A DNA stretch of 64,000 bases from a virus (IMGVR_UViG_3300027763_000029); one strand, 5' to 3'. Counted from the stretch's first letter, positions 21,614-48,870 are shown. Numbers and translations: made by a program. Notes: generated by a model from the letters alone, not told the origin.

Positions 21614-24274
21614 TTAGCTTGGAACTGTCAATTGGACAATATTACTATTTATACCATATTCACGAGTTCCACCGCCTGCCTCTACAACTACATCTGTTTT
21701 AACTATGCAACGATAGTATTTACCATTATCATTAGCGTAGGTGAGCCCAGTAAGATTTAATGTGCTAGAGGTTGCACCAGGAATATAAGTTAATTGCGCA
21801 TTTCCGTTTTGTTGTGGGGTGAGGGACGAACCCCTATACCATTGATATGTTGGAGTTTCTGTTCCTACAACGGTTACAGGATAAGAAAATGTTGCATTTC
21901 CTCCTACTGCCGTTTGTGGTTGTAGGATAGGTTGTGTCGAGTAAGGATAGTTACTAGACGTATCATTAGCAATAGCCCAAACCTTTAATCCTACTAAGGA
22001 ACCATTGTTACCATCGATATTAAATGTAAAATAGTCACCAGCAACAACATCTCCAACATATAATCCACTGCCAGTAGTATTATTTAAATTAATCAAATAA
22101 GTACTTTCTCTAATCCTACTATAATAATCAATAGGATCGTTTTTCCTGATATATGTTTCAGTATAGGTATTTTCGTCTTGTGAATAACTAGAAGAATTCC
22201 ATTTAATATGAATTTTACCAGGAGCACCTATTGATAAACATAAACTAGTATTAACTGGAAATGATGCTTTTCTAAATGCAGTAGCTTCAGAAACTCCAGC
22301 ATATCCACTATCCCATCCACCACACGCAGATGCTCCGATAGCAGAAAGAGACGCTATAATAGTTGGTATAGCATATATTTCGACATTAGAGAAAAGTTGA
22401 GATCCATCTTTTTCGCTACTTTCAATTGTTATTATATCATTAGCAACAACTGAGAATGTGGTAGTCCTGTTTGTGCCGGTCGATACGCTATACATTGAAG
22501 TTTTAGATCCTCCAGTAGTCTTGTATACTATAGCAGAACCGTCAGCGCCATCTTGATCTAAAAAGTCAAATTCCACAGTAATAGCAGCGGCGGCATTAAC
22601 TGTCCAAGAATAGCGGGTCAATCCATTAACATCAATATCCACAACAGAGTCTGCTCTAAAATAATGACTAGATTCTGTTCCGATTCCTGAGAAAGACGAT
22701 GTATTTCCACCGCCATTAGAACGAGAAATTGTTAAAAGTCTAGGAGGTGGAGATGAAGTTGGTGTTAATGTTTGTGTAGCTGTTAATGTTGGTGTTGAAG
22801 TTACTGCTGGAGTTATGGTTTGTGTTAATGTTGGAGTAACTGTTGTTGTAGCTGTAATGGTTTGAGTAATCGTTGCTGTTATTGTTGGGGTAGCTGTAAC
22901 TGTTGGAGTAATTGTTCCTGTTACTGTTTTTGTTACCGTTACTGTTGGAGTAATTGTCGAAGTAATAGTTGGAGTAACTGTTGAAGTAGTTGTTGGGGTT
23001 GGACTAACAGGGGTAGCTGTTACTGTTGGAGTAGCTGTAGCTGTTACCGTTTCTGTCACTGTTGCCGTTGGGGTTGCTGTTTGAGTGGCTGTTGGTGTTG
23101 GACTAAGAGGAGTAGCTGTTACTGTTGGAGTAGGTGTTACTGTTGGGGTGGTAACAGCAGTTTTTGTTGGGGTTGGCGTAACCGTCGAAGTTCGTGTTGG
23201 GGTTGGTGAAACAACAATAGATCCGTTTCCTATACCGTCAGCACTAATGATTGATGGAGGACTATCGCTTTGGGTAGGATAAGTCCAATAGCCAGCATTT
23301 AGACCTCCGCTCTTATAATATGCTGCCTTATACCATTCATCTTCTGTTGGAATATGATATTTTGCACCACTATTCTTATCAACTGTTCCACCACTAGTTT
23401 TTCCATTTAAAGTATATGCTCCATCTTCTGTGGTAGTATTATCTTGCAATCCGCTAGGCTTGTTATTATGTATCCAGTTTGCGTATCTTGCAGCATCAAA
23501 CCAGCTTACATATGCTACTGGTTTATTACCATAATTTGCTTTAACACTATATAAATAGCTACCATTATTCCCGCTACGAATTATGCCTCCTCTTGATATT
23601 CCCATTTCAGCTTTATATAGACCATACTCATCTGTTGAAGCAATAGAATTTAAAAAATCTTTATATTCGTTATTTGTCACAAGATATTTTTGTATGAAAT
23701 AATCATACCTAACTCGCCCCTTTTCTCCACCAAAAAAAACAGCATTGTCTTCAAGAGTATTTAGAAATCTAGTATCAGCAATATTGTTGCTGTCTTCAAC
23801 ACTAACAAAATTAGGTAAAGAATAAATATTAGAGATACTAGCTAAACGAAAGCCATTATTTGGAGCCGATGAGTTTGGATTACCAATATTATTATGCAAA
23901 GGACTTAAAACACTGTATCCTACCCCCAACCAAGATCCTCCCCTAACATAACCTGAAGGACTAGCAAGCCCATCCAAGCTATTCCATTCATTTAGCTGTC
24001 CACCCATATCATAAGTGCCATATGCTCCTGGCCCCCCATTAGTTCCAACACTTGTTAAATTACCTTCGAATCCATCTGAAGGATTATCCCATGTGGCACC
24101 CCTCCAGAAATTAGCAGTATTTGCACCAATAATAAGTTTTGGGGTATTGACTACATAATTGGTAAAAGCTCCTTGACCCATAGAATTAACTGCTGCTACC
24201 CTTACTCTATAGGATGCTCCATTTTTTAACTTGCTTAGTGTATAGGCCGTATTTGAAGTATTAACTATGGTCAT
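21614..24274 (-). CDS. Modular appendage protein: half-FN3, permuted FGE/CLec domain, Thr/Pro stalk, two beta modules, Ig domain
   Basis: N-terminal YTLSKLKNGASYRVRVAAVNSMGQG; FGE motifs [34 protein letters not shown]; C-terminal Ig PTYQWYR...YYRCIV. Confidence 0.75.
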   Translation of the reverse strand: MTIVNTSNTAYTLSKLKNGASYRVRVAAVNSMGQGAFTNYVVNTPKLIIGANTANFWRGATWDNPSDGFEGNLTSVGTNGGPGAYGTYDMGGQLNEWNSLDGLASPSGYVRGGSWLGVGYSVLSPLHNNIGNPNSSAPNNGFRLASISNIYSLPNFVSVEDSNNIADTRFLNTLEDNAVFFGGEKGRVRYDYFIQKYLVTNNEYKDFLNSIASTDEYGLYKAEMGISRGGIIRSGNNGSYLYSVKANYGNKPVAYVSWFDAARYANWIHNNKPSGLQDNTTTEDGAYTLNGKTSGGTVDKNSGAKYHIPTEDEWYKAAYYKSGGLNAGYWTYPTQSDSPPSIISADGIGNGSIVVSPTPTRTSTVTPTPTKTAVTTPTVTPTPTVTATPLSPTPTATQTATPTATVTETVTATATPTVTATPVSPTPTTTSTVTPTITSTITPTVTVTKTVTGTITPTVTATPTITATITQTITATTTVTPTLTQTITPAVTSTPTLTATQTLTPTSSPPPRLLTISRSNGGGNTSSFSGIGTESSHYFRADSVVDIDVNGLTRYSWTVNAAAAITVEFDFLDQDGADGSAIVYKTTGGSKTSMYSVSTGTNRTTTFSVVANDIITIESSEKDGSQLFSNVEIYAIPTIIASLSAIGASACGGWDSGYAGVSEATAFRKASFPVNTSLCLSIGAPGKIHIKWNSSSYSQDENTYTETYIRKNDPIDYYSRIRESTYLINLNNTTGSGLYVGDVVAGDYFTFNIDGNNGSLVGLKVWAIANDTSSNYPYSTQPILQPQTAVGGNATFSYPVTVVGTETPTYQWYRGSSLTPQQNGNAQLTYIPGATSSTLNLTGLTYANDNGKYYRCIVKTDVVVEAGGGTREYGINSNIVQLTVPS

Positions 24275-24309
24275 TTAAATTTCCTAATAAATCATATTGA
24301 TAATAAATA

Positions 24310-24316
24310 ATACACC
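24310..24316 (-). promoter_or_regulatory. RGTGTAT motif, putative late promoter
   Basis: ATACACC in the intergenic gap, 36 nt upstream of start 24274. Confidence 0.55.
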
Positions 24317-24325
24317 TATCAAAAA

Positions 24326-26275: not shown

Positions 26276-26288
26276 AATATTTATGTCT

Positions 26289-29200
26289 CTAGTATATTGG
26301 CTCAAACTGTATCATTGAGAAGGTATTTGCAAATAGACCTATTCCAGGAGAATTTGATCCATAAAGAGATATTCTATTTATCATAGTAGGATAACGATTT
26401 AATGTGTCAAAATAGAACTCCCTTGATGTTGTACTAATTGTTAGTTGAGATTGTGATATATAAAAACCTCCACTAAAAGTATTTACATATATTGACTGGC
26501 CACCATTTACTGCATCTTGCCATCCTGTGGTAAGAGGACCAAAAGCATACTTAAAGCCTCTTATAGGAGTCCAAACAGGGAAAACAACAGATATCTTAAA
26601 ACCGTCTCTTTCTGTGTGAGTATTTATATATGTATTATAATCTTGAGTAGATAAATATCTGTATCTAGTATTGTCATTTAAGAAACTCAATAATGGAGGA
26701 TATGTTGTTTGGTTGACAACAGATGCTCTAGACATATCTGGATAGTTCGATTCAACACTGCTCCAACCATATCCGTCTATTATTGGTTGTCCAAAATTAT
26801 CTAAATAATAGGGGGTGGGGTAGTAGGGCGGGGCTACTCTGTAGATAGGAACACGAACACCAAAACTAAAACTCTTCTGATAAAAATATTCATTAACAAT
26901 ATAAGGTCTTGGAGTGCGTGTTGGGGTTGATGTTATTGCTGGCGTTGGCGTGAATGGTGGTGTTGGAGAAACAGATGGTGTTGGATATGGTGTTTGAGAT
27001 AGAGATGGGGTTGGTGTTGGTACATTTAGATAGTCTACAACTAACTCAACAGGCATTGTATTTGATATGTCGTCAAATATTTGTAAAACAACTATACCTC
27101 CATTATTACCCACCGAATCATAGTAACCAACAAATAGATTATCTTCCAAATTACAAGTATTACAATTCTTCTCAGACGCTATTGCTATAGACGTTACTAT
27201 TTTACCTGGAATATTTAGATTTATGATATTAACTATTTGATCAGAATCTGTATTGATGCATGCTACTTTATTGGTGTCTAATAAAACATATAGTATATTT
27301 TTATGGTATTCCATAGCAACTGGTTTTGCATTATCTGCGAAAGGTACACGATATAAGCTATTAGCAACCCAGTTCTCTACAAAAACTTCTTGAGTATTAT
27401 TTTGATTGGCGGTCTCTGATAGTACATGAACGCCTGGATTATCTCCTATATCAGATATATATACTTTTCCGTTAGTTCTCATATACGAAGAATTATTACC
27501 ATAGAAATATTTTGCATTATTATTCGGACAAAGAACTTGGCCTGGTTCACTACCTTCTGGCAACATGCAATACCTATTAGATATAGCATTTGTTCCATAT
27601 ATAAAAATAACTGGTACAAGTTTCCATATTTTTGTAAGATCTGGTTGAGCAAAAAATGCTCTTACAAGAGCAGCAACATAAACACATCCCGCGGTTGAAC
27701 TATAGTCCAAACCCCTAGCATAAGTACCACCAATAGTATTTCTTATATTAGTTTTGAAAAACTCACTATTAGTAAATGGTCTTTCTGGATCGTTAGAGTA
27801 GAAAAAAGATCCATAGTCTATTCTGCAGTCATTACTGGTATTATTGCTGGAACAGAAAGCAGATTCTCCTGGTAGCCAATATTGTCGATCCAAACTTAGT
27901 CCTACAGTTTTATTATTTGTTCCCATCATTGTTTGTTGAAGAGCAATTCCTACGTAGCCTGCATTATGATATTGCCCGGTTGGGAATCTGGAGTCTTCTA
28001 GATTACTAATATCGAAAGAATTAGAACCGTATGGTGCACTTATTCCAATGAAATTTGTTCCTTTGTTTTTAGTGTATCCACCAGTTGAAGAAAAAAATGT
28101 TGGGTCAGTAGTACCATAAAGTAATCCATATGATGTCGAACCAGTTTCGTCAAAAAATTTAGCAGAGGTCAATCTGTGTATTTTCTTTTCCGTTAGTCCA
28201 TAATAAGAACCTATATATAGACTATTATTTATTCTATATGCATTATTAAATTTTATTACATCTTTAATTTCACACCTTAATAATCCTCGACCATATTTAG
28301 GACTAAAGTTTAAAAGATGATTATCCGGTACACCAACATAGCTTGAAAGGTGTTTATCGGAAGCTATCGCTTGAACACCACCACTAACATTTATAATTCC
28401 TCTTAATGAAAATTGAGTAATATTTATTGGGGTTGGAGAAGGACTTGGTGTTGGATATGGCGTTGGTGTTTTGGTTGGTGGTAAGGTTGCTACTATTCTG
28501 GACGTACCATCTCCTACCGCATTAGCACTTACGCAATATGGAATATCATCGGTCTGAGTGGCATAAGACCAATAGCCAGCGTCGGTACCTATTGCTTTAT
28601 AATATGCTGCTTTATACCATTCATTCCAGGTAGGAATATAATATTTTGCTGTGGTATTTCTGGATCTATTACCAGATGTTGCACCACTTATACTGTATGC
28701 TCCAGTCTCAGTGGTACTATTATTCTGAGGTCCTATTGGTTTGCTATTATGCAACCAGTTTGCGTATCTTGCAGCACTAAGCCAGCTAACAAAATTAACA
28801 GGTTTATTACCATAGTTTGTTTTAGTCGAATATGAGTAGCTTCCATCGCCTCCTGATCGGTTTATACCTCCTAATGATCCAGACATATTGGTATCGTATA
28901 CTCCATATAAGTCTGTGATTGCAATAGCATTCAAGAATTGAACATATTCGCTATTAGTAATCTCATATTTTTGTATCATATATGAATATGGAACGCTTCC
29001 TTTTCTGAATCCTGTAGTATCAGGAGCATTATTTGGATCTCCAACGGACATAAAATTAGAATAATTATTAGGATTAGTTAAAGTTGCTAAACGAAAGCCT
29101 ATATAAGAACGTCTATCATTAGATCCGGTGCCAGATATTAAGTTTTTATTATTAATTGAAGTGTCTGAATAATTACCCCCAGTATAACAATATGAGCCAA

Positions 29201-32200
29201 TACTAGGCGATTCATCGATCCATTCATCTATATTACCATCCATATCGTAAACGCCATAAGCACTTGGTCCGCCGTTAGTTCCAACAGTAGTTAGATTTCC
29301 GCTTGTGCCATTCCAAATAGCACAGCGACTCCAGTTTATACTATTAGCTCCAATTATACGCGGAGTTAGTGTTGGAGTTATTGTTGGCGTTGATGCTGGC
29401 GTTCGTGTCGGTGTTGAAGTTACGGTAGGCGTAGATGTTATAGCTGAAGTTTGTGTCTGAGTTACTGTTGTTGTTGACGTTACTGTTGGTGTTTTTGTTG
29501 GAGTTTGAGTTGCTGTTGATGTTCTGGTTGGAGTTGGTGTTGGCGTTGCAAATGAACCATCTCCAATACTATTAGATATTATCCGATCTGGCTGACTATT
29601 GCTCTGTGTAGCATAAGTCCAATATCCCGCATTGGTACTGCCTCCTTTATAATACGCGGCCTTGTACCATTCATTTTCGGTTGGAATATAATATTTTGCT
29701 CCAATTTTTCTTGATACAGTGTCTGTTCGTGCTGTTTTACCATTTAAAGCGTATGCTCCATCTTCAGTGGTACTACTATTTTGAAGTCCAGATGGTTTAC
29801 CATTATGCAACCAATTGCAGTAACGAGCAGCATCAAACCAATTCACATAGTTTACCGGCTTGTTGCCGTAATTATTTTTTACAGTATAAGAAAAGCTTCC
29901 ACTAGCTCCTGATTGGATTATCCCTCCTGGAGTACTAGCATAACCCATCAGATAAAAATACAATTGATATGTATCAGTTGCAGCAATAGCATTTAAAAAT
30001 TCAGCATACTCACTATTAGTAATTTCATATTTACCTATATGATACTCATATGCTACTGCTCCCCTACCAATACTTCCATACGTATTCAAAGTATCAGCAA
30101 GATTATTAGCGTCTCCAACGACTACAAAATTAGAATAATTATAAGGATTATTAGAGCTTGAGATACGAAAACCATACTGACTGGTCTTTGAAACTGGATT
30201 ATCGAATCCTCCTCCGTAAGATGATGTGAAAGGAATAGTAATATTAAATGCTCCACCCCTTATCTGCTTATCGGCATATGTATTGGTGCCGTCATAATCG
30301 TTCCATTCTTGAACATTGCCGTCCATATCATAAGTGCCATAAGCGCTTGGTCCACCATTGCTTCCAACCGAAGATACATTTCCATTTTTATTATCCCAAA
30401 CTACATAATTGTTGTAGTTAGCAGTATTAGCACCAAAAATACGCGATGTTGGTGTTGGCGTAGGTGTTTTTGTTTGACTAATTGTTGGCGTTATAGTGGG
30501 TGTTATAGCAGGTGTCTGAGTCGTTGTTGGAGTTACTGTATTGGTTGGTGTTAATGTCACTGTTGGGGTGATCGTTGATGTTTTTGTAGCTGTTATAGTA
30601 GCTGTTTGTGTGGCTGTGACTGTTGGGGTTATTGTTGATGTTACTGTTGAAGTAAGGGTTGGAGTAACCGTTAATGTTCGAGTAATGGTTTTTGTTATTG
30701 TCTGAGTGTTTGTGGGAGTTGTCGTAGAGGTAATTGTTGGCGTTATCGTTGAAGTAAGAGTGGGAGTAGAGGTTAATGTTGGAGTAGTAGTTTTTGTTAT
30801 CGTAGGAGTGGTTGTTGGTGTTATTGTTTGGGTTCTTGTTGGACTAATAGTATTAGTTTGGGTTATGGTTGTAGTAACTGTGGATGTAATGGTTGGAGTA
30901 ACAGTTTGAGTGAGAGTTGGAGTTGGACTAATTGGAGTAGCTGTGATAGTTGACGTAACGGTTGGAGTAACTGTCTGAGTGGACGTTGGTGTTGGGCTAA
31001 TTGGAGTAGCTGTAACAGTTGGAGTAACAGTTGGAGTGAGGGTTCTAGTTGCTGTTGATGTTACTGTGTTAGTTGGAGTTACGGTTGTTGTTGCTGTTCT
31101 TGTTACTGTTGGAGTAAATGTTGGACTCACAGTATTGGTGGGCGTTATTGTTGATGTTATAGACGGAGTAACAGTTGAAGTAGGCGTTAGTGATTGAGTA
31201 ACAGTTTGAGTTACCGTTGAGGTTGTTGTAACAGTTGGAGTTGCTGTTGATGTTACTGTGTTAGTTGGAGTTACGGTTGATGTTGCTGTTATTGTTACTG
31301 TTGGAGTAAATGTTGGACTCACAGTATTGGTGGGCGTTATTGTTGATGTTATAGATGGAGTAACAGTTGAGGTAGCGGTTAGTGATTGAGTAACCGTTTG
31401 GGTTACTGTTGATGTTACTGTAGTAGTTGGAGTTACGGTTGATGTTACTGTGTTAGTTGGGGTTACTGTTAATGTTGGCGTTATTGTTGATGTTACTGTA
31501 TTGGTTGGAGTTAATGTCGGAGTTACTGTGTTAGTCGGAGTTAATGTGGGAGTTTCTTTGTTAGTTGGTGTTATTGTTGTAGTTGCCGTAACTGTTGGCG
31601 TTATTGTGGAAGTTGCTGTATTAGTTGGTGTTATTGAGTTTGTTGGCGTAAAAGTTGGAGTTATCGTTGGAGTAACCGTTGAACTGACCGTTACTGTTGG
31701 CGTAATTGTTGGAGTTACTGTCGGAGTTTTAGTAGCCGCAGGAGTTGATGTTGAAGTTGGTGTTCTTGTTGGAGTTGTTGTATTGGTTGGTGTGGGGGTT
31801 GGACTTGCTAATGGACCATAACCTATATTATTTACATTTATCCCATATGGAGCACTATTACTCTGAGTAGCATACTGCCAATAGCCAGCGTCGGTACCTC
31901 CTCCTTTATAGTAAGCTGCTTTAAACCATTCATTTTTAGTTGGTATACAGTATTTTGCTCCAACTTTTCTCGTTGTACTAGTTCCACTACCTATTCCATT
32001 TAGAGCATAAGCTCCATCTTCAGTGGTGCTGCTATCTTGAATTCCATTTGGTTTGTTGTTGTGCAACCAGTTTGCATAGCGAGCAGTATCAAACCAACTA
32101 ACATAATTAACGGGTTTATTTTCATAATTATTTTTAGTTGAATAAGTATAACTGCCACTAATTCCTGATCGCAATATGCCTCCACCAGCAGCTGCCATAT

Positions 32201-35200
32201 TAATATCATATAGTCCATATGTATCAGTTGTTGCAACTGCGTTCAAAAATTCAGCATATTCACTATTTGTTACTTCGTATTTCTGTATATAATATTGATA
32301 TGAAACAGTTCCATTGTTAGTATAAATATCTGGACTATTATTAATGTCTTCAATACTCAAAAAATTTGAATAATTATAGGGATTACTCAAACTTGTTAAA
32401 CGAAAACCTATATATTGTTGGCTATTTGCTGGATTTTCTGATATAGTAGTTTGATTATTTGCTGATAAAATATTAATAAAATCACCACCAAGTATTGTAC
32501 GAAGATAGGTATTAAAAATACCTTCGCTCCATTCCTGAACATTTCCGTTCATATCATAAGCCCCATAAGCGCTGGGACCACCGTTACTTCCAACAGTAGT
32601 TACGTTTCCATTTCTACCATCCCAAACTGCTGAGTTATATGTATTAGCAGTATTAGCTCCTATAATACGTGGAGTTGGTGTTGGTGTTGAAGTTAATGTT
32701 GGAGTAATTGTTGCTGTTTTGGTAATCGTTGGTGTTAGTGTTGAAGTTGCTGTAATGGTTGGTGTTGCTGTTGACGTTAATGTTTTTGTTGGCGTAACCG
32801 TTGATGTTAATGTTTTTGTTGGCGTAACCGTTGATGTTAATGTATTCGTTGGAGTAAAGGTTGGACTTATGGTATTGGTTGGTGTTATTGTGGGAGTTAA
32901 TGTAGATGTTGATGTTACTGTGGGAGTAATTGTAGAAGTAGGGGTTGGTGTTGATGTTGATCCAACTGTTGGTGTTACTGTTGTAGTCGCCGTTATTGTT
33001 GGAGTAACCGTTTCAGTTGGCGTTACTGTTGGAGTAACAGTTTCAGTTGGTGTTACTGTTGGAGTAGCAGTCAATGTTTTAGTGACTGTTACTGTAACTG
33101 TTGGGGTTACTGTAGCTGTTGGGCTTTCTGTAATTGTTGGAGTTACCGTAGAGGTTACGGTTGGAGTAGGAGTTTCTGTTTCTGTAATAGTAGGAGTAGG
33201 AGTTACCGTTGAAGTTGCCGTAACTGTTGGGGTAGCAGTTTGGCTTTCCGTAATAGTAGGAGTTAGTGTTGGTGTTACTGTTGGAGTAGCAGTCAATGTT
33301 TCAGTGACTGTTACTGTAACTGTTGGGGTTACTGTTGTAGTCGCCGTTATTGTTGGAGTAACCGTTTCAGTTGGCGTTACTGTTGGAGTAGGAGTTTCTG
33401 TTTCTGTAATAGTAGGAGTAGGAGTTACCGTTGAAGTTGCCGTAACTGTTGGGGTAGCAGTTTGGCTTTCCGTAATAGTAGGAGTTAGTGTTGGTGTGAC
33501 TGTAGATGTAGCAGTAACGGTTGGTGTCACTGTAGTTGTTGGACTTGGCGTTAATGTTTGTGTCTTAGTGGTGGTAATAGTTGGTGTTGGAGTTAAGGTC
33601 TGTGTTCTAGTAACAGTTGGGGTTAGTGTATACATATCTCCAATATTAAAAGCAAATCCACTACTCTCATCTCCGGCATTTCTAGTTCCATAATCAGCAG
33701 AAACAGATATTTTTGATCCTTGGGTTGTCGTAAATTTCCAATTAACGCTCTCATAAGTCCAGCTTCCAAAACCATTTAAATCTCCCTCATTATATCCTCC
33801 GATATCTTGTCCAGAACTAAACTGAGATCCATTAGAGGAACTCAAAACTCCGCTTGGATTATATAGTGTTCCGCTACCACTAAAATCTGAAAATACTAAG
33901 GATCCAGCCGGATAAGTTCCATTACTAAGATCAGGATCAATAGAAGTTCGGTTTCCTGGTCCTATGTTCCTCTCATTACCAGCACCAAATATCTGAAGTC
34001 CTTGTAAATTAAATATAGAAGAAAATTCAGGATCAATAGAACCAGAAACAGTATAGGAAAATCTACTAAATCCATACCTTGTTGTGTCATAGCCAGGAGT
34101 AGACATCTTCATAACCACAGATAATCCAATATTAGGATATCTTGGATTCTGTAAGTTAGATACTTCAAGAGTAATATCTTGGGCCGGAGTTGGTTGTCCA
34201 GCTTTGATATCAACAATATTCCAATCTAAATCGTTTAAAAACCATGAGCCAATTCTTCTTCCTTTATGTACAATCAAACCGTCAGCAGAATTTGTAGAAA
34301 CCGAAGAAACCGTATAAAGAATTCCATTAGTAGCACAATCTGATCCATTGCCAGATAAACTAGCACAAATAGGCTCCGGAACAATATCACTCTGAGTAGC
34401 ATACAGCCAGTATCCAGCATCTGTTCCTGACACCTTGTAATATGCTGCTTTGTACCATTCGTCTTCTGTTGGAAGATTATATCTTGCATTTGGATTTAAA
34501 TCAATGAAATCTCCATCAGTAGCACCAAAAAGAGAGTATGCTCCATCTTCTGTGGTGGTCTCGTCTTGAATTCCACTTGGCTTACCGTTATGTAGCCAAT
34601 TGCAGTATCTTGCAGCGTCAAACCAATTTGTCCAAATAACCGGCTTATTTCCATAGTTTGATATTGTGATACTTGATGCATGTTCCGCATGGAGTCTGGT
34701 GGTTCTTTCAGCGTATGAATAATTCCCGGACGTTCCGGTTCTTGTTATTCCACCAACAGCATAATTATTACTTGGATATGACACACCCATATTAGTATTA
34801 TATACTGAATAAGTATCATCTGATGCTATAGCATTTAAAAACTCAATATACTCATCGTTGGTGGTTTCGTATTTTTTAATCTTATAGTCATAATTTACTG
34901 ATCCAAATCCTGTCAAATCTGCAAGATTACCAGAGCTATTAACGTCCACAAAATCATTAAATAAATAGGGATTAGATTTACTAGCAACACGAAATCCTGT
35001 ATTTCCACTATCATAATTAGGATGAACTAGAGCTCCACGATATAATGAATTTATAGTACTAGCATTACTAGACCAATTAGCTCCTCCAGATTTTATTGAA
35101 GAATCATTTTTCCATTCTAATGTATTACCACTCATATCAAAAACGCCATAAGCACTAGCTCCACCAGCACTACCAACGGTAATAACGTTTCCATTTCTAT

Positions 35201-37550: not shown

Positions 37551-37608
37551 GCATTATTCATAATAAGCTCTTTATATTTATATGCAAATTGGTAAAATTG
37601 TATTTTTA

Positions 37609-40600
37609 TCATATAAATGGCCCAATATCGGTATACGATACAAGATAGTCATCGTATCCTCCTCCTCCAACGATTAATTTACTTCCATTTGAAATCAATC
37701 CAAATCTGGGAGCTATTGTACTTATACTTTTTGCTATAACTCCAACATTTCCATTAGAGATAGAGTCTGTAATATCAATCGATATTAATTTATTAGTTGA
37801 ATTATTTACTGATGAATTATAAAGATTCATATATGCTCTATCATAAATAGTATTAACATGTATTCCAGCAGCGATAAATTCGCATCCAACAGGTAGTGTA
37901 ATAGTATTACTAATAGTATCGGTAGCTGTATTTATTATGACCAATCCTGATTGACCCATACTATAATTTGGCATTGGAATAAATAGTCTATTATTAGTAT
38001 CTAAAAACATATTTGAATGACTAATTAAGCTAGGATAATTGAATAAACCAGTTGGCAGATTAATAAATTTAGTTATAGTATTAGAGTTTATATCGTAAAC
38101 ATATACTACTCCATCTCCTAAAATATATAGCTTCAATCCGAATTTGACTATATTTCTAGCAGATACTCCTAGATTTAAACTAGCTGACTCAGTTAGCGGA
38201 GTATTAAAAAATGCAGATACATCATAGGACTTAATAAATCCTCCAACACTAGCATATAATTTACTAGAATTGCTATCATATTTGATAAAATCAAAAGTTC
38301 CCAAACCTGAAAAAGAGGTAGTATAATTTGAATATGATGTTGAACTACCAATACAATGAATAATAAAATTATCTTTAGCAATAAATACGGATCCATTCGT
38401 TCCGACAGTTATAGGACATGAAATCCCGGTTCCTAATCCAATTGATCTTATGCTGAATATGTTTGATGATACATCCAGACAAAATAATACTCCTCCTGTT
38501 GCTCCGGCTAATCCATGTACTCTGTTGGAATTTCCTTCAAAAACAAGAGATTGAATACCATATCCTGGAAAGTATGCATATGGTGCCACCTGAGTAAAAA
38601 CCGTTTGTGTTGATGTTGGTGTTGCTGTTAATGTTGGTGTTGGTGTCTTTGTGGGAGTGATTGTTGAGGTTATTGTTGAAGTAATGGTTGGGGTAATGGT
38701 TGGAGTTAGAGTTAAAGTTTTTGTGGGAGTAATTGTACTAGTTATAGTTGGTGTAACTGTTAACGATGGAGTTAATGTTTGAGTTACTGTTGGTGTCGGG
38801 GTTGGAGCAACCGTTATGGTGTTCCAATCACTAACCGAAATACCGGTACCATAATTCAAAAGTCTAATTCTCCAAGAGACAATACCATTAGAGTGACCAC
38901 GAATAAGTGGAATTGCATAACTAATAGGATTATAGTCAAATAGTTTCCATTTGATATTGTCAGTTGAAAACTCTAATATATAGTATCCATATCCATCTGT
39001 TCTTCGGTCCATATTCGTTATTGTTATGCTATTAGCTGTTATATTAGTTATTGATGGTGGGATAAGATTTTCTGGATTAATATAAGTATGAGTATTTGAC
39101 CAAGGACTAACAATATCTGGAGTAATACTTTTCCAGCATTTTACTCTCCATATTTTTGATTCAGAATACGTAATATAAGATGTGTTATTGCTGTTAGATG
39201 AAACTGTTCCATTTCCTTCTAATATCCAATTAGATCCTCCATCCGAAGAAGAGTTTAGTTCAAAAGCTACCTGAAAATCATTGACATTAAATATAACAGC
39301 AAACGAGGAAGTACTTACAGATACCAGTGTAGGAACTAATGGAAGAGGAGTTGTAGTAGGAGTCGGAGTTGTTGTACTAGTAGCAGTTATCGTTGGAGTT
39401 TGAGTTACTGCTGGTGTTCTGGTTGGAGTTGGAGTTGGAGTTGCTAATGGTCCGTATCCTATACTGTTGGAGCTAATACAGGTAGGGGCCGTATCACTTT
39501 GGGTGGCGTATTTCCAATAACCAGAATTAGTTCCATCACCCTTGTAGTAAGCGGCCTTATACCATTCATTAAAATTGGGAATAAAATATTTTGCTATAGT
39601 ATTTCTTGATATATTTCCAGAAATTGCGCCACTTAGATTGTATGCTCCATCCTCAGTAGTACTACTATCTTGAAGTCCAGTTGGTTTATTGTTGTGCAAC
39701 CAATTGCAATATCTCGCGGTACTGAGCCAACTAACAAGATTAATCGGCTTATCATCATAATTTGTTTTAGTTGAGTAGGAATAGCTACCGTTAGTTCCTG
39801 ATCTTATTATACCTCCTCTACTTATACCCATATTTGCGTAATACAGCTCGTACGTATCTGTTGTAGCTACAGCATTCAAAAAATCCCTATATTCATTATT
39901 AGTTACTGGATATTTTTGAATCATATATGTATATGAGACATTTCCTTTTCTGGAAGGTTTAGTATTAGACTGATTATTAGGATCTCCAACGGATACAAAA
40001 TTAGAATAATTATTAGGATTAGTTAAAGTTGCTAGACGAAAACCTATATAATCGCCGAGGCCCCACGAGGCACGCCCATATATTCCTACATCATCGCCGA
40101 ACTCTGACAAAGAGCTTAAATAGCTACCACCCACATAATTGTAAGAGCCAACGCCAGGTACATCATCAATCCATTCAAAAACATTACCGTTCATATCATA
40201 AGTTCCATAAGCACTTGGTCCACCATTAGTGCCAACAGTAGTAACATTACCATCTATGCTATCCCAATCAGCACAATAGTTAAAATTAGCAGTATTAGCT
40301 CCTGCCGGCAGAGCATATCTAACTGGAGTAGAAGTTGGGGGTGGGGTTCTTGTTGGAGTAACTGTTAAAGTTGATGTTACTGTTGGTGTTAATGTCTTTG
40401 TGGGAGTTCTTGTTGGAGTAATTGTTGAAGTGACCGTTATCGTTGGGGTTATTGTTGGAGTTTTTGTTATTGCTGGTGTGTTGGTGGGCGTTACTGTTGG
40501 TGTTGGTGTTGGCGATGGAATCATTCCATCTCCTGAAATATCAGCACTAACACAAACTGGATCACTATCATTCTGAGTAGCATATCTCCAGTAGCCAGAA

Positions 40601-43600
40601 TTAACTCCATATCCTTTATAATAAGCAGCTTTGTACCACTCATTTTCAGTGGGTATATGGTATTTTGCGCCGACTTTTCTAGATACAGCGTTTCCATTAA
40701 AAAGTCCATTTAATGAATAAGCACCATCTTCGGTGGTACTATTATTTTGAATTCCACTTGGCTTACCATTATGGAGCCAATTGCAATATCTTGCGGCATC
40801 AAACCAACTAATCCAATTAACGGGCTTATTTCCATGATTTACTTTAACGGAGTATGAGTAACTTCCGCTACTTCCTGACTGTACTATGCCTCCCACTTGA
40901 CCAATACCATTAGATCCCATATTAGGATGATATAGATTATACGTGTCGGTTATTGCTATAGAATTTAAGAATTCAGTATACTCACTATTAGTCACTGCAT
41001 ACTTTCCTATATTATATATGTATGAAACAGCGCCTTTGGTGGTATAAGTATCGTTAGCGTTATTAATATCTCCAACAGTAACAAAGTTTGAAAGACCTAA
41101 AGGATTAAGCGTAGAATAAGACGAAGCAACTCTAAAGCCGAAGCTATTACTAACATCACTAGGAATATGACTCCTATTATTTCCTGCTCCAATATAACTT
41201 ATTGTAAACTCATTAAAAGCACCACCTCTTAATTGACGATAAACGCCTTGACTCAATGCTCCTGGGCCACCAACACCATTCAAATCATTCCACTCAAAGA
41301 TATTTCCGCTTTGATCATATGTTCCGTAAGCGCTTGGTCCACCATTACTTCCAACAGTAGTAAGATCTCCGTCATTACCTCCCCAATCAGCACAATTACT
41401 AAAATTAGCAGAATTACTTCCAATACTAAAAATAAAAGATGATACAGATAAAGCTCTGGTGCTAAAAGAGAAGGTTTCTGGGTCTCTAGCCAACATCATA
41501 AAACGGCCATTGTTTAAATAAACTATCTTGGTATAATAAGTTTGACCACCGTACCCACCCCAGCCAAGAGGTAAATCATTTTTTATTCTCCAATTAATAC
41601 CATCAATACTTACTCCATAACGATTTTCTCCAGTAATGCCATATCCAGCAAATATGAAAGTATGATCTCCATATGCTATGGAACTAGATGCTGGTGCAGA
41701 ACTGTCTAGGCTAGCATTAGTCCAATTTATAGTGTCATAGCTATATTTTACTGAAGCACTATTAAATATCGAATCAGATACTGCAATCCATTTTGACTCT
41801 CCATAAGTTATGGACATACCACCAATTCCATTAATATTTCTTTTAGTCCAATTTAACCCATCGGAACTAAAAAGAACACAATCTCCATTTCCAACATAAT
41901 ATCCTCCAGGAACAATAGCTTTATTCGACGGACTAACCACAAAGGTATTATTAAGAAAACTAATCCTTGAATAACCAGCATAATAAGTATTAAAGTAGCT
42001 GCTAGTTGGAGAGGGTAATGTTCTTGCTGTCCAGTTTATTCCGTCTGTACTAGTAATATAAAGATGTGGCGATAATGCTGGATATGTTAAGTTTTCAACT
42101 ACCTGAGTACTATGAGAGGCAACAGCAACAAACATTCCATTACCATAGGCTATCGATTGCCAAAAACCATAAGGAATGGTTCCAACTTCCCAGGAGTATC
42201 CTTTATCATAGCTATAATAATATTTATTACTTGGTAGCACAGAAGCATTATAATCTCTACTAGTCTTTCTTGCTGAAGGCAAAATTATAAGCATACCAGA
42301 TATAGGATTATATGTTATGGATGAAATTCCAGAATAATATGATGGTCCCGAATTAGATCCTGGTAATGACGATAAATCTGGCCCGAGAATCCATCCGTTT
42401 TGATTATCTATATTATCGTTTAGATATATAGATCCACCGTTAGTCAGTATAATGGCAGGAAATCCTTTACCAACTGTGATATAATCACTACCAAGTATCG
42501 CAATATCAATAGGACTAGAAACACTACCAAGTCCTAAGTCATTTATAGAAACATCAAGACTTTGATTCGTAGTAGAACGCTGAGTAATAAATACTTGTTG
42601 GGTTGGAGTAACCGTTGGTGTCGGAGTTTTAGTTGCCGTAGCTGTTATGGTTTTTGTTATTGTTGGCGTTGGTGTTACTGTGGGGGTTTTTGTTGGAGTT
42701 ACCGTTAAGGTACTTGTATTAGTTGGTGTTTTTGTTGTAGTTGCTGTTAATGTATTTGTAGGGGTAGGTGATGGGTCAGGACTTGGACAATGATATGTAA
42801 AATTCTGTGTAGTATATCTTGCAATCCCCTTAGTCACTCTAAGCTCGTCAATATAACAAGTGTTGCTATTTGGATAGTTTGGAGTAGCCCCTATGCAAAC
42901 TGGTAAAGTATTAGATAAAAGTGTTGGGATTGACGCGAGCCCGACCTCTGAACCATTAATATATGCTCTAATTTGCCCAGCGGCCCTTGAAAATGCTACG
43001 TGGGTCCACTGATTTAATGGAACAGCTGTTGTCCCGAATGATGTAGAAGCTGATCCGTTCCAGAAATTCAAAATACCGTTATTTCTAACTGAAAAGCTAA
43101 AATTTGTTGATATTCCAGTCGTTGTAAATAGCTGAGTATCATAAGTTCCATAAGCAATAATTTTAATCCACGCTTCTACAGTAAAGTCTCCTGAGCCAAA
43201 ACCAAAAAGAGTACTATTTGCTGGTATTTGTAAATAGTCTCCTACTCCATCTATATACAAACTACTATTATTAAATCTATAGTCATCAGTTGATATTTTA
43301 GCATCTCCAACATAAGAAATAGTATTTGTACTAGAATTTGAACTACTATCAGTAAATACTTGTGAATTATTAGATCCATTAAAGTGTAATAATAATGAAA
43401 CATTGTTGCTAAATGTATCGGCACTACCAACAGGACAGGTCGATGGAGTTAATGTCGGGGTTAATGTTTTTGTTGGAGTAACAGTTGGCGTCAATGTTTT
43501 AGTTGGAGTAACAGTTGGCGTCAATGTTTTAGTTGGAGTGACTGTTGGTGTTACTGTGGGAGTTTTTGTTAGTGTTGGTGATACTGTATTTGTTGGTGTT

Positions 43601-44928
43601 TTTGTTGGAGTTACTGTTGACGTTATTGTTTTTGTTAATGTTGGAGTTGCTGTTAATGTTGGAGTTAATGTTTTTGTTGGAGTTAGTGTTGGAGTCAATG
43701 TTGTTGTTTTAGTAACTGTTGCACTAACCGTTGGAGTTACTGTTGGAGTTAATGTGCTTGTTGCAGTATTACTTACAGTAACTGTTGGAGTACAAAGATT
43801 ATCAGGATTATATGAGCAATAAGGACCACTGCCATTAGCAAAAGCACTAATAAAAGCAGGTGCTACATCACTCTGAGTAGCATATGTCCAATATCCTTCA
43901 TTAATACCATATCCCTTATAATATCCAGCTTTAATCCACTCATCTTCTGTTGGTATCCAATATTTTGCCCCATCTTCTTTTGGATAAATTCCATAGTTAG
44001 CACCATCCAAAAAATATGCTCCGTCTTCTGTGGTAGATCTATCTTGTAATCCAGTATTTGGTTTTCCGTTATGTAACCAGTTGCAGTATCTTGCTGCATT
44101 ATACCAGCTGATAAAAACTACCGGTTTATTACCCATATATGATCTTGATATATAATCATATATTCCATAGCTTGTTGATCTTTGTATTCCTCCTCTAGGA
44201 TCAGAGGACATTAGGGGATTATAAGCATTATAATAATCATATTTTGCTGTGCTATTTAAAAAATCAACATACTCATCGTTAGTAATTTCATACTTGCTAA
44301 TAGCATACTTATAGCTAACGCTTCCATATCCATTAGAATCATTAGAATTATTGATATCTTCAATAACAACAAATCTATTATTTTCAAAATCACATGAACA
44401 TGGTCTAAATCCTAACTTATCCGAAATATATGATGGATCAGCAAGTGTTCTATCTTTAAGAGAAGACGAACTTGTTGTTGACCAGTTTCCACCCCTATAA
44501 ACTCTCTTAATAGAGTTTCCACTAATAGTATCATTCCATTCACTAGCATTACCGTCCATATCATAGCAGTCATAATAGCTTGGTCCGCCATTAGTTCCTA
44601 CCGACGTTGTGTTACCTTGACCAGTAATATTCCAAATTGCAAAATTATTATAGTTGGCCGTATTGAATCCAGTTATCCTAGCTAATATAATAGGATTATC
44701 TGTAGTAGCATCACTAAAAATTAAATAATACCTATCAGGCTGTAATTTAAGAAGGTTATTAAAGCTTGATCCTGGTACCCAAGAATACATCTCTAGTCCA
44801 TCATAGGATATTCCTAATACTTTTTTTATCCTAGATTTAAATGGAGCATCATCAATAGTTAAACTGGTTAATCCAGTATATTTGACTATTTCCGTTGCCT
44901 GGGTGATGATGCAGAGATTGTCTATCAT
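37609..44928 (-). CDS. Giant modular appendage protein (2439 aa): module A, three permuted FGE/CLec domains, LamG, propeller repeats, FN3-like pair, C-terminal propeller
   Basis: LamG DFTVEAWI...WTHVAFSR...YIDELRVTKG; IAYGNGMFVAV/STDGINWT repeats; three FGE motif sets. Confidence 0.8.
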   Translation of the reverse strand: MIDNLCIITQATEIVKYTGLTSLTIDDAPFKSRIKKVLGISYDGLEMYSWVPGSSFNNLLKLQPDRYYLIFSDATTDNPIILARITGFNTANYNNFAIWNITGQGNTTSVGTNGGPSYYDCYDMDGNASEWNDTISGNSIKRVYRGGNWSTTSSSSLKDRTLADPSYISDKLGFRPCSCDFENNRFVVIEDINNSNDSNGYGSVSYKYAISKYEITNDEYVDFLNSTAKYDYYNAYNPLMSSDPRGGIQRSTSYGIYDYISRSYMGNKPVVFISWYNAARYCNWLHNGKPNTGLQDRSTTEDGAYFLDGANYGIYPKEDGAKYWIPTEDEWIKAGYYKGYGINEGYWTYATQSDVAPAFISAFANGSGPYCSYNPDNLCTPTVTVSNTATSTLTPTVTPTVSATVTKTTTLTPTLTPTKTLTPTLTATPTLTKTITSTVTPTKTPTNTVSPTLTKTPTVTPTVTPTKTLTPTVTPTKTLTPTVTPTKTLTPTLTPSTCPVGSADTFSNNVSLLLHFNGSNNSQVFTDSSSNSSTNTISYVGDAKISTDDYRFNNSSLYIDGVGDYLQIPANSTLFGFGSGDFTVEAWIKIIAYGTYDTQLFTTTGISTNFSFSVRNNGILNFWNGSASTSFGTTAVPLNQWTHVAFSRAAGQIRAYINGSEVGLASIPTLLSNTLPVCIGATPNYPNSNTCYIDELRVTKGIARYTTQNFTYHCPSPDPSPTPTNTLTATTTKTPTNTSTLTVTPTKTPTVTPTPTITKTITATATKTPTPTVTPTQQVFITQRSTTNQSLDVSINDLGLGSVSSPIDIAILGSDYITVGKGFPAIILTNGGSIYLNDNIDNQNGWILGPDLSSLPGSNSGPSYYSGISSITYNPISGMLIILPSARKTSRDYNASVLPSNKYYYSYDKGYSWEVGTIPYGFWQSIAYGNGMFVAVASHSTQVVENLTYPALSPHLYITSTDGINWTARTLPSPTSSYFNTYYAGYSRISFLNNTFVVSPSNKAIVPGGYYVGNGDCVLFSSDGLNWTKRNINGIGGMSITYGESKWIAVSDSIFNSASVKYSYDTINWTNASLDSSAPASSSIAYGDHTFIFAGYGITGENRYGVSIDGINWRIKNDLPLGWGGYGGQTYYTKIVYLNNGRFMMLARDPETFSFSTRALSVSSFIFSIGSNSANFSNCADWGGNDGDLTTVGSNGGPSAYGTYDQSGNIFEWNDLNGVGGPGALSQGVYRQLRGGAFNEFTISYIGAGNNRSHIPSDVSNSFGFRVASSYSTLNPLGLSNFVTVGDINNANDTYTTKGAVSYIYNIGKYAVTNSEYTEFLNSIAITDTYNLYHPNMGSNGIGQVGGIVQSGSSGSYSYSVKVNHGNKPVNWISWFDAARYCNWLHNGKPSGIQNNSTTEDGAYSLNGLFNGNAVSRKVGAKYHIPTENEWYKAAYYKGYGVNSGYWRYATQNDSDPVCVSADISGDGMIPSPTPTPTVTPTNTPAITKTPTITPTITVTSTITPTRTPTKTLTPTVTSTLTVTPTRTPPPTSTPVRYALPAGANTANFNYCADWDSIDGNVTTVGTNGGPSAYGTYDMNGNVFEWIDDVPGVGSYNYVGGSYLSSLSEFGDDVGIYGRASWGLGDYIGFRLATLTNPNNYSNFVSVGDPNNQSNTKPSRKGNVSYTYMIQKYPVTNNEYRDFLNAVATTDTYELYYANMGISRGGIIRSGTNGSYSYSTKTNYDDKPINLVSWLSTARYCNWLHNNKPTGLQDSSTTEDGAYNLSGAISGNISRNTIAKYFIPNFNEWYKAAYYKGDGTNSGYWKYATQSDTAPTCISSNSIGYGPLATPTPTPTRTPAVTQTPTITATSTTTPTPTTTPLPLVPTLVSVSTSSFAVIFNVNDFQVAFELNSSSDGGSNWILEGNGTVSSNSNNTSYITYSESKIWRVKCWKSITPDIVSPWSNTHTYINPENLIPPSITNITANSITITNMDRRTDGYGYYILEFSTDNIKWKLFDYNPISYAIPLIRGHSNGIVSWRIRLLNYGTGISVSDWNTITVAPTPTPTVTQTLTPSLTVTPTITSTITPTKTLTLTPTITPTITSTITSTITPTKTPTPTLTATPTSTQTVFTQVAPYAYFPGYGIQSLVFEGNSNRVHGLAGATGGVLFCLDVSSNIFSIRSIGLGTGISCPITVGTNGSVFIAKDNFIIHCIGSSTSYSNYTTSFSGLGTFDFIKYDSNSSKLYASVGGFIKSYDVSAFFNTPLTESASLNLGVSARNIVKFGLKLYILGDGVVYVYDINSNTITKFINLPTGLFNYPSLISHSNMFLDTNNRLFIPMPNYSMGQSGLVIINTATDTISNTITLPVGCEFIAAGIHVNTIYDRAYMNLYNSSVNNSTNKLISIDITDSISNGNVGVIAKSISTIAPRFGLISNGSKLIVGGGGYDDYLVSYTDIGPFI
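43461..43540. repeat. 30-bp tandem repeat x2.7 (TPTKTLTPTV)
   Basis: TCAATGTTTTAGTTGGAGTAACAGTTGGCG repeated. Confidence 0.85.
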
Positions 44929-44981
44929 TAGATAAAAATTTCATATGAATTGATAATATTAGCCTTGTCCTATAACATAGT

Positions 44982-44988
44982 ATACACC
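44982..44988 (-). promoter_or_regulatory. RGTGTAT motif, putative late promoter
   Basis: ATACACC in the intergenic gap, 54 nt upstream of start 44928. Confidence 0.55.
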
Positions 44989-45022
44989 CAACAAGTACAA
45001 TGAATTTAGCCAGAAATATAAT

Positions 45023-45652: not shown

Positions 45653-45664
45653 TTGATCACATTA

Positions 45665-45868
45665 TTATAGAATAACAGTAGTCAATAGCAATTCATTTGA
45701 TTCTTTATTATATATCTCTATTTTTTCTAAACCCTCTGTATTTTCTAATAATTCCATTATTCCTCTAGGATATTTTTTATCATCCAATACAGATAGTATA
45801 CTATCTAAATTAACTGATGTATTACCATATACATTTACAATATATTTTGTTAAAGTTAGTGTTTGCAT
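45665..45868 (-). CDS. Small hypothetical protein
   Basis: 67 aa ORF filling the gap between co-oriented genes; TAAGGA Shine-Dalgarno. Confidence 0.55.
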   Translation of the reverse strand: MQTLTLTKYIVNVYGNTSVNLDSILSVLDDKKYPRGIMELLENTEGLEKIEIYNKESNELLLTTVIL

Positions 45869-45882
45869 AATATTTCCTTATT

Positions 45883-48870
45883 TTATGTAGCGTCGTATAT
45901 TACTATTGATGGGTTGGTATTAGAATATCCACCAAGAGCTAATCTATTTGATAGATAGATCGTTCCTAATCTTGGAACTCCAACACAGAAATTTTTTGTA
46001 AGTATACCTATATCGTCATTATCTATCGAAGCAGCAATATCTAATCCTACTAGTCTGTTGGATGAATTACTAGTACTAGAATTGTTACAATTGATATAGG
46101 CTATGTCATGAGCAACGTCAACAGCAATATTAGCTTGAATAAAGTTAATACCCACAGGCAACGATATTGTATTGCTTATAGTATTATTAGAGGTATTAAT
46201 TACTAGTAAACAGGCTTGACCATTTCCAAAACTTGGTAATGGAATATATAGTTTATGGTTTGTATTATCTAGGAAAGAGTTAGAAGAGCTAATATTGGTA
46301 ATACTTCCAAATTCCGCTGGTAAAGTTATCGAAGTTACTTCGGTATTTCCATCAGTATCTATAACAATTATTGAGGTATCAGTAATCAAATATAGCCTAT
46401 CATCCGTTGAATTGACTAATATATTTTTGACATTAGTACCAACAGCTAAAGTTAAGCTAGATATTTCAGTAAGAGAAGTAGAGGTAGATGTACTATAGGT
46501 CTTTAACATACCTCCTATAATACCATATAAACGATTAGATGAACTATCGTACTTAATAAAACCAAAAGATCCAAGAGAACCAGATATACTAATAACAGAA
46601 TTAAGATTATCTAAATCATAAACACCTATTTTATTATTTGATCCAAGATAGATTCTTTCATCTTCACCAATTGTCATTGGACATGTTGCTATTGTCATAG
46701 AACTATTTTGTAAATGAAGAGCATCTAGAACATCTAAACTAGATGAATATGAGTCAAACTTATATATAGATTGAAAAGAAGTATCATAATCAACTAAACA
46801 GTAAATAAAATTACTATTACCTCCAACTCCTATATCTGTAAATTTATGACGACGATATAGACTTTGTAAGTTCTTATATGCCAAAGTAGGAAATACTACC
46901 TGAGTCGCTGTTGGCGTTACTGTTGAAGTTGGAGTAACAGTTGGAGTTTCTGTAATGCTAGGAGTTACTGTTGGACTTAATGTTAATGTAGGAGTCGGTG
47001 TTGTTGTTTCTGTAGGTGTTGGAGTTAAGGTCGTGGTTTCTGTAACAGTTATGGTTAAAGTCGGAGTTGCTGTTGTACTAGGCGTTAATGTTGGAGTTTC
47101 TGTTGGGGTGAGAGTTGGAGTTAGAGTATTTGTTGGAGTTAGCGTTGGTGTTAGTGTTTCTGTTGGCGTTAGAGTTGGAGTTAAAGTCTCTGTTACTGTT
47201 GGAGTTACAGTATTTGTTGGAGTTGCCGTTACTGTTGGAGTAAGAGTTTCGGTTGGTGTTATGGTTTGAGTTGGTGTTATAGTTTGAGTTAGCGTAACAG
47301 TTGGCGTAGGAGTTTGAGTTAGCGTAGGGCTTATTGTTAAGGTTGGTGTTACTGTAACAGTTGATGATATTGTTTGTGTTGGCGTAGCCGTTGGTGAATT
47401 TGTAATTACTGGAGTTCTAGTAAGTGTTGGAGTATTAGTAGGACTTACTGTTATTGTTGGAGTACAAACATTATCGGCATTGTAAGCACAATACGGACCA
47501 CTACCACAAGATCCAGCACTAATCGATACTGGAGTACTATTACTCTGAGTTGCATAATTGAAATAGCTTGGATTTTTATAGTATGCTGCCTTAACCCACT
47601 CATCTTCTGTTGGAATCCAATATTTAGCGCCATTATTTTTTGGTATGATTCCTTGATTTGCTCCATATATATCGTATGCACCAGTTTCTGTGCTGTTGGC
47701 AGTTGGTGCTCCTGATACTATTTTGCCGTTATGGAGCCAGTTAGCGTATCTTGCGGCATTATACCAGCTGACATAAACAACTGGTTTATTTCCCATACAT
47801 GGCTTACTATAGTAAGAATACGAACCATTAGATCCAGTTCTGATTATTCCGGCTCTAATATCATTAATTGTAGCAGTATCGTATAGTCCATAAGTATCTA
47901 CTACTGCCGTAGCATTTAAAAAATCAACATACTGATCATTTGTTACAGTATATTTTTGTATCATATACTGATATGGTACAGACCCATATCCTGTAACAGC
48001 ATCTGGTTCATTGTCCTCGTCTAATATCGGGATAAAAAAATTATAATTTGAAGGATTTGACCAAGAAGCTAATCTAAATCCTAAAGTATTCAAAGATCCA
48101 GAAGGAGAGTATATTGTTCGAGCACTTTTAGCTAAACTGGAAGATGATGAAGACCAATTTCCTCCTCTAAAGCTTCTGGAAAAATTATTAAGAATATTAT
48201 CAGTCCACTCATCAACATTTCCATTCATATCATAACAACCGTAATGGCTAGCACCACCATTAGTTCCAACAACGGTTACATTGCCTGTTTGAGCATTCCA
48301 TCCTCCAGTATTGTTGTAATTAACAGCATTAAAACCAGCCATAACCGGTGGTTTTTCCCATAGAACGAAAGGAGTACCATTAGTAATGATCAAATACATT
48401 TTATTAGGAGATAGATAGGTTAAAGTATTAAACTGACTATCTTTAGTCCATGAAATAAAAGAAGAACCATTACTACTAACTCCATAAATTTTTTCTATAA
48501 AAGGAAATGTTCTGCTTGTAATATTTAAATTTTCTGTATTCTTATATGTTACTAATGAAATTTTATTTTGTAGTATTATAGAAGATGTTGGTAGAACGTC
48601 TGCTGTTACTGGCCCAAAAGAATACTCAGGATATTTTTGTGAGCTTACTATTATGTAGTTTTTATTTGTTTCTAAACTTGTAAGACTATTAAAAATACCA
48701 CTAGGTTGATAATAGACATAATGATCTCCGTCTTCACCAACTGTAAAAATAGTAGATATTTCTGATTTAACATTATTATCAAGACTATCTAAAGATAGAT
48801 TATCTCCTAAATATTCTATAAAAGATAGCTGTTTTGTGATATTAATGCTATTACCATTGATCATATTCAT
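45883..48870 (-). CDS. Modular appendage protein: 2x module A, permuted FGE/CLec domain, Thr/Pro stalk, beta-propeller
   Basis: FGE motif set; C-terminal region paralogous to that of 37609..44928 ([38 protein letters not shown]). Confidence 0.75.

Follow-up and report, generated by a model that had tools for sequence, protein, structure and literature searches.

Ten Circularly Permuted FGE-Sulfatase Domains in the Giant Tail-Region Genes of a Viral Genome

Introduction

The FGE/C-type-lectin (CLec) fold is well known in phages and bacteria as a scaffold that supports variable ligand binding; Mtd and TvpA, both targets of diversity-generating retroelements (DGRs), are examples. Here, we analyze a 64,000-nucleotide stretch of viral DNA, IMGVR_UViG_3300027763_000029, referred to as the window, which is the reverse strand of positions 25205-89204 in one 151,782-bp viral record listed as 100% complete. 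Four very large genes of the window encode ten domains, or modules, homologous to the FGE-sulfatase family (Pfam PF03781), in which the two halves of the domain follow each other in swapped order. Throughout, B denotes the first ~98 residues of the module (…GN..EW…RGG…GFR), normally the C-terminal half, and A the last ~187 residues (FV.V.D…YEVTN…KPV..VSW…[11 protein letters not shown]…ATQ), normally the N-terminal half. All coordinates of modules and window genes are window positions.

Treponema denticola variable protein 1 (TvpA, PDB 2y3c) has the same fold as the modules. It is non-catalytic, with a hypervariable segment just before the GFR strand, and in this respect TvpA, Mtd (1yu0), TaqVP (5vf4), and the phage modules are all alike. 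TvpA reads A then B, and its variable region lies at the protein C-terminus, where it is written by a retroelement. In contrast, the phage modules read B then A, carry the variable segment internally, exist as ten paralogues, and come with neither a reverse transcriptase (RT) match nor a template repeat. Human SUMF1/FGE (1y1e/2aft) and its paralogue pFGE (1y4j) are homologous by profile (E 1e-8 to 1e-10) and by structure, but FGE is an enzyme with a Cys pair where the phage modules are hypervariable and Cys-free, and its halves stand in the opposite order.

The closest sequence relatives are normal-order PF03781 proteins with PEP-CTERM anchors from Planctomycetota, Verrucomicrobiota, and allied phyla, at ~40-57% identity over the matched parts. 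They have in common with the phage modules several motifs ([33 protein letters not shown]), the lack of a catalytic Cys, and their occurrence as multi-copy families. They differ in being collinear with Pfam, typically ~350 aa long, and equipped with a signal peptide and a PEP-CTERM anchor after GFRVA (50/75); no isolated B-A unit was found in those examined.

Classical natural circular permutations, such as concanavalin A versus favin and the DNA methyltransferases, are thought to arise by duplication and trimming. The event described here is of the same kind, with tandem-repeat relatives and alternative cut points that fit this route, although the fold is a different one. A full-text literature search found no published description of a permuted FGE/CLec domain, and neither Pfam nor NCBIfam holds a model for the permuted form. 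Where such proteins have a database name, it is FGE or SUMF1 ('sulfatase-modifying factor', 'formylglycine-generating enzyme').

Ten Modules with Swapped Halves

The region is a series of very large minus-strand genes, four of which encode the modules. Searching all open reading frames of the window with one module (phmmer) recovered ten full-length, collinear copies, with i-E values from 1.8e-59 to 2.1e-205. The modules are ~280-300 aa long and share 46-63% pairwise identity. A six-frame profile search of the whole 151,782-bp genome recovered the same ten and no eleventh. At the junction of the two halves, the module consensus reads GFR[LV]AS-x-SNP-x-NYSNF-V-x-V-x-D. A preliminary description of this DNA had placed ten copies within ~15 nt of our own coordinates, and the motifs it quoted recur in the module consensus. 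The genes and modules are as follows:

21614..24274, minus strand: 886-aa gene; one permuted module (aa 47-345), then a Pro/Thr linker and C-terminal domains
26289..37550, minus strand: 3753-aa gene; five permuted modules, with Pro/Thr-rich linkers and other domains between
37609..44928, minus strand: 2439-aa gene; three permuted modules and a Laminin_G_3 (ConA-like) domain
45883..48870, minus strand: 995-aa gene; one permuted module (aa 176-452), propeller-like C-terminal part
23240..24136, minus strand: module 1, B half then A half (phmmer)
28524..29360, minus strand: module 2 (phmmer)
29571..30443, minus strand: module 3, reference copy for fold prediction and searches; B half 30150-30443, A half 29571-30131
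30174..30293, minus strand: most variable segment of reference module 3 (aa 51-90); flanks the conserved RGG and precedes GFR; equivalent to the DGR-target variable region (PMC5758913)
31833..32669, minus strand: module 4 (phmmer)
34362..35252, minus strand: module 5, with a 14-residue insertion in the A half (phmmer)
36687..37514, minus strand: module 6, starting ~20 aa from the protein N-terminus (phmmer)
39469..40311, minus strand: module 7 (phmmer)
40543..41430, minus strand: module 8 (phmmer)
43843..44679, minus strand: module 9 (phmmer)
47515..48345, minus strand: module 10 (phmmer)

The match to PF03781 is split and reversed: module residues 9-94 correspond to profile positions 151-253 of 255, while residues 132-277 correspond to positions 35-134. 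With scores of 72-255 bits per protein against a gathering cut-off of 23.3, the modules belong to the superfamily, and each half alone passes the cut-off (26.8 and 51.4 bits). The phage module does not have the canonical PF03781 architecture, which is collinear and ends at GFR; collinear matches were obtained for a bacterial relative (L002) and for the phage protein of L186. Similarly, sequence searches of the PDB, with a single sequence and with a profile, show the swapped order relative to human FGE, pFGE, TvpA, CarF, and others; for instance, module profile positions 127-211 align to FGE 38-142, and positions 32-95 to FGE 201-282. The modules are a true circular permutation of the FGE-sulfatase/CLec-fold domain. 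The preliminary description had held that a B-type part precedes an A-type part, that a short linker closes the old termini, and that each copy should give two Pfam matches in swapped order. The order stands by Pfam, PDB profiles, and structure alignments alike, the linker measures ~10 residues, and the split match is the one given above.

Predicted Fold and Variable Segment

AlphaFold2 (AF2), run on the reference module with an alignment of 76 B-A modules, predicted one compact domain (mean predicted local distance difference test, pLDDT, 94.9; predicted template modeling score, pTM, 0.94). This run superseded a single-sequence prediction with a pLDDT of 29. C-type-lectin-like folds pair their N-terminal strand with their C-terminal one, so that a normal-order domain already has both chain ends in the same place. 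Two strands of the model, 90-92 (GFR) and 106-109 (the first A strand), flank the junction and are consistent with this pairing; as modeled, they would fit a short hairpin that closes the old pair of N- and C-terminal strands.

Both structure searches, Foldseek and VIA, use order-dependent aligners. VIA, run exhaustively, returned 16 matches with Z >= 2, and 15 of the 16, the best ones, are FGE/CLec-fold proteins. Model residues 97-291 match the N-terminal part of the chains of CarF (2-188, Z 6.4), TvpA (53-237, Z 5.9 over 150 residues), and pFGE (27-211, Z 5.3), whereas residues 3-98 match the C-terminal part of EgtB-IV (334-441, Z 5.3), TaqVP (Z 3.1), and Mtd (266-374, Z 3.1). Foldseek against the PDB gave half-length matches at E > 0.1, the relevant ones of ~100 columns each, led by TvpA and followed by PorK, pFGE, PvdO, CarF, and FGE. 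Half-length matches are what a permutant yields with an order-dependent aligner and do not speak for a new fold. The model thus has the CLec fold of the FGE subtype, with one half aligned per match and in swapped order.

Variability in the module peaks in two blocks, residues 51-60 and 71-90, whose entropy is 2.3 bits across the ten copies and 3.1-3.4 bits across the 76-module alignment. These blocks align to the C-terminal region of TvpA. In DGR targets of this fold, the variable region makes up the final ~45 residues (PMC5758913).

Distribution in Bacteria and Viruses

When 1.84 billion representative proteins were searched exhaustively with HMMER, 9,040 matched at E <= 1e-3. Of the top 150, one is the window's own P0001 and 149 are metagenome-derived representatives; scoring the A and B halves separately showed these 149 to comprise 55 purely B-A, 65 purely A-B (often tandem), and 29 mixed proteins.

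In prokaryotes, sampled at one genome per species, 589 related stretches were found, and IMG/VR gave 171. The best cellular loci are mainly from Planctomycetota and Verrucomicrobiota, with some from Armatimonadota, Lentisphaerae, and others. The preliminary description had pointed to a search for the permuted form beyond phages, and the outcome is one-sided. The best 80 of the 589 cellular loci hold 84 A-B frames and no B-A frame, while in a first scan of the best 80 of the 171 viral stretches, 86 of 101 frames are purely B-A, 15 mixed, and none purely A-B. Furthermore, neither 401 Planctomycetota genomes nor 401 Verrucomicrobiota genomes yielded a full-length B-A match; only A halves and one A-B-A-B tandem passed a threshold set so high that nothing but a complete B-A match or an exceptionally strong A half could reach it. 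That tandem accounts for a near-full-length B-A match in a Verrucomicrobiota genome (L163, profile 30-277 of 279), which we rejected as a permutant. The permuted form was found in phage DNA only, and the bacterial relatives examined keep the normal order.

Of 75 cellular proteins whose chain stops shortly after the last B half, 50 carry a PEP-CTERM-like tail directly behind GFRVA, and PF07589 scores above its cut-off in L002. The four phage proteins of the window gave no PEP-CTERM match; their modules run into Pro/Thr linkers. Five bacterial genomes with PEP-CTERM-type relatives hold 4-26 matches each, A then B throughout. An Armatimonadota-labeled chromosome from a metagenome-assembled genome (G003:C1) has 26 module-profile matches, with two clusters of normal-order paralogues at 1018378-1024637 and 4050308-4056513. 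Such adjacent paralogues are abundant raw material for tandem fusion.

A second viral scan revealed that phages also carry normal-order arrays. For instance, a 1456-aa phage protein (L186:5805-10172) combines a baseplate-wedge domain (PF23786) with tandem normal-order FGE-sulfatase domains and gives a collinear Pfam match at 39-255; because it joins the two, phages use both topologies on tail structures. No match to the module was found at E <= 1e-5 in 50,697 deposited phage genomes (tblastn), nor was there a full-length structural match in BFVD.

Origin of the Permutation

Since the A-B order is common to all distant members of the fold, B-A is derived. The A-half tree unites 148 of the 149 B-A units in one clade free of A-B units, with a bipartition support of 0.94. 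The tree of concatenated halves groups all B-A units together with ten A-B units (support 0.996), and the B half, being short and variable, resolves poorly. Since ten A-B units fall among the B-A units, a single origin is favored, not proven. These ten nearest A-B units come mostly from tandem ABAB or ABABAB proteins. Along the same lines, two tandem A-B proteins, P0110 and P0046, have a B-to-A linker as short as the one at the phage junction. For P0009, the nearest tandem relative, IMG/VR contains no close copy.

Three metagenome proteins of the ABAB type (P0150, P0085, and P0031) run from GFR into a PEP-CTERM anchor, then a new signal peptide, and then the next A half. Each resembles a set of paralogous surface-protein genes in tandem, joined in frame with no stop codon between them.

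The same ring has been opened at a second point. In three viral proteins, the chain instead opens within the A half, at a surface loop, giving the order A(133-176)-B-A(1-135). That loop, near profile positions 110-130, accommodates insertions of 25-140 residues in other phage modules. In addition, some phage modules carry insertions of ~270-290 aa between the B and A halves, i.e., at the closed old termini; the insert of L178 has no Pfam match. These forms are located as follows:

L104:4591-6834 (near-duplicate in L111): second-cut permutant; the same protein also holds an ordinary B-A module
L110:5911-6990 and L160:5707-7305: second-cut permutants
L170:6279-10622, L178:6867-10790, and L180:3587-7408; also L128, L119, and L138: phage modules with large insertions

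Tandem ABAB relatives and the second cut point together favor duplication followed by trimming, which we infer to have happened in phages with one or a few origins.

Alternative Readings

In principle, tandem A-B repeats in normal order would show an apparent B-A order if read from the middle of one repeat into the next. A-B-A-B proteins among the close relatives do contain embedded B-A stretches, and two pairs of window modules sit only 71-85 residues apart. However, a tandem array is excluded because the 886-aa and 995-aa proteins contain a single B-A module with unrelated sequence on both sides, and module 6 of gene 26289-37550 begins ~20 aa from the N-terminus with no A half before it. Eight of the ten modules lie hundreds of residues apart, bounded by Pro/Thr-rich linkers, many viral proteins hold one isolated B-A unit, and AF2 folds a lone B-A unit (pTM 0.94). 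The isolated units led us to reject a tandem misreading, whose probability we consider negligible; the preliminary description had reached the same view from the order in single-copy genes, an order that genes 21614-24274 and 45883-48870 do show. It is also very improbable that the permuted modules are enzymes, with FGE-, EgtB-, or PvdO-like oxidative chemistry, instead of binding domains. The family does include enzymes, and the modules give weak NCBIfam matches to EgtB, PvdO, SenA, and GldK, yet all of these fall far under the family cut-offs, and ten copies on structural, stalked proteins of a tail module are not what an enzyme would suggest. There is no invariant or near-invariant Cys in the ten window modules or in the 76-module alignment, which bears out an earlier remark that the catalytic cysteines are absent, and the positions aligned to the human FGE catalytic pair (C336/C341) fall in the non-conserved segment before GFR. 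The part equivalent to the enzyme active site is the least conserved of all, the modules lack the Cys pair of a catalytic FGE, and the enzyme reading was rejected. Diversification of the variable segments by a DGR, as in TvpA and Mtd, would agree with the shared fold and the equivalent variable position. Nonetheless, the genome, a record listed as complete, has no RT match (PF00078 search) and no second DNA copy of any variable segment, hence no template-like repeat, and the segment is internal to the module, not at the gene 3' end. The modules therefore lack the cognate RT and template repeat of a DGR variable protein, and this explanation, too, was rejected as having next to no likelihood.

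A different question is whether the permutation of these modules is adaptive, as the preliminary description proposed: by taking the termini away from the binding pocket, it would allow heads to sit at internal positions along the stalks. A domain in the normal order has its variable segment in the last ~45 residues before the C-terminus (PMC5758913). The anchor of the bacterial relatives directly follows GFRVA, and in phages, B-A predominates and is typically internal, between Pro/Thr linkers. Against this, domains in the normal order occur at internal positions as well: four A-B units, 87-453 aa apart, lie in a 1990-aa Planctomycetota frame (L030), and further cases are a 2452-aa bacterial frame (L052) and the phage proteins of L174, L186, L097, and L116. 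Because A-B domains sit internally in giant bacterial and phage proteins alike, permutation is not required for internal placement. Moreover, the second cut point also works, and the chain ends of a normal-order domain already lie together. The proposal is thus weakened, and we regard an adaptive origin as unlikely; the permutation may be largely a neutral by-product of the history of duplication and trimming.

Genomic Setting

Downstream of the module genes, neighboring genes match phage baseplate and virion PHROGs. Homologues of neighboring tail-region genes recur beside B-A genes in viral loci, while cellular loci carry none. Laminin_G_3 (ConA-like lectin) domains accompany the modules in gene 37609-44928 (aa 560-698) and in gene 24326-26305 (aa 91-231). 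The C-terminal parts of 45883-48870 and 37609-44928 are alike by eye, and that of 45883-48870 has a weak match to a YncE-type propeller. Two more giant genes, 5400-12323 (2307 aa) and 12325-19227 (2300 aa), have no Pfam match; homologues of the latter, at 39-41% identity, adjoin B-A genes in the viral loci L132, L119, L125, and L126. Window positions 30001-34000, over long Pro/Thr-rich linkers of the minus-strand 3753-aa gene, show a strong positive GC skew (0.20-0.38) and a negative AT skew.

Proposed Explanation and Function

The explanation that we favor, and consider probable, is that the module is a natural circular permutant of a non-catalytic FGE-sulfatase domain, used as a ligand-binding head and derived in phages by duplication and trimming. 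In structural terms, the chain begins with B, which consists of the GN-x-EW strands followed by the variable segment and, at its end, the GFR strand; it crosses the old termini in a ~10-residue hairpin and continues into A, the whole being predicted to form one compact domain. The donor would have been a normal-order domain of the kind present in PEP-CTERM surface proteins of Planctomycetota and Verrucomicrobiota; in a phage lineage, it would have been duplicated in tandem (A-B-A-B), cut back to B-A in one event or a few, and then spread there.

Judging from sequence and model, the modules are probably ligand-binding heads on tail-region appendage proteins. This prediction draws on the lectin-like fold, the loss of catalytic residues, and a variable segment at the DGR binding position, together with the Pro/Thr stalks, the companion Laminin_G_3 domains, and the tail-gene context. 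The context is that of receptor-binding or tail-fiber proteins: the genes lie in a tail-gene neighborhood, and in L186 a normal-order relative is fused to a baseplate-wedge domain. The heads would probably bind glycans and would be carried on Pro/Thr-rich stalks. Their hypervariable segment before GFR may form the binding surface, as in the DGR variable proteins of this fold, with diversity arising from ten diverged paralogues and not from a retroelement.

Several points weigh against this explanation. The 55 purely B-A and 29 mixed metagenome-derived representatives may include cellular carriers, and the deep sampling covered two bacterial phyla, with at most six candidates scored per genome. 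The concatenated and B-half trees show no clean B-A clade, and ten A-B units lie among the B-A units. Structure matches are moderate (Z 5-6.4) and were made half by half, each covering one part of the fold, which accounts for the moderate Z. The binding role and the virion location are drawn from sequence, model, and gene context.

A broader proposal, which we advance tentatively and rate somewhat short of an even chance, is a rewiring specific to a phage lineage. A host-type domain of PEP-CTERM surface proteins would have been captured, duplicated in tandem, and re-cut at two or more different loops into a portable 'bead' that is strung on Pro/Thr stalks. The ten beads would then constitute a hard-wired, retroelement-free receptor-binding repertoire, an alternative to DGR diversification.

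Implications

This genome adds to the known biology of the fold a ten-copy repertoire, the link to PEP-CTERM proteins and tandem arrays, the near-monophyly of B-A units, and a second cut point. The permuted branch, with about 60 B-A proteins in the top 150 of 9,040 matches and 171 IMG/VR stretches, is invisible to collinear domain models; with a model built for the permuted form, many giant phage tail proteins would be annotated correctly. In this family, the normal, tandem, permuted, and re-cut arrangements coexist, and as a natural record of circular permutation by duplication and trimming it is unusually complete. The resemblance in sequence to surface proteins of Planctomycetota and Verrucomicrobiota offers a clue to the donor or the host. 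The presence of ten distinct heads in a single tail module suggests that adsorption is multivalent or involves several receptors.

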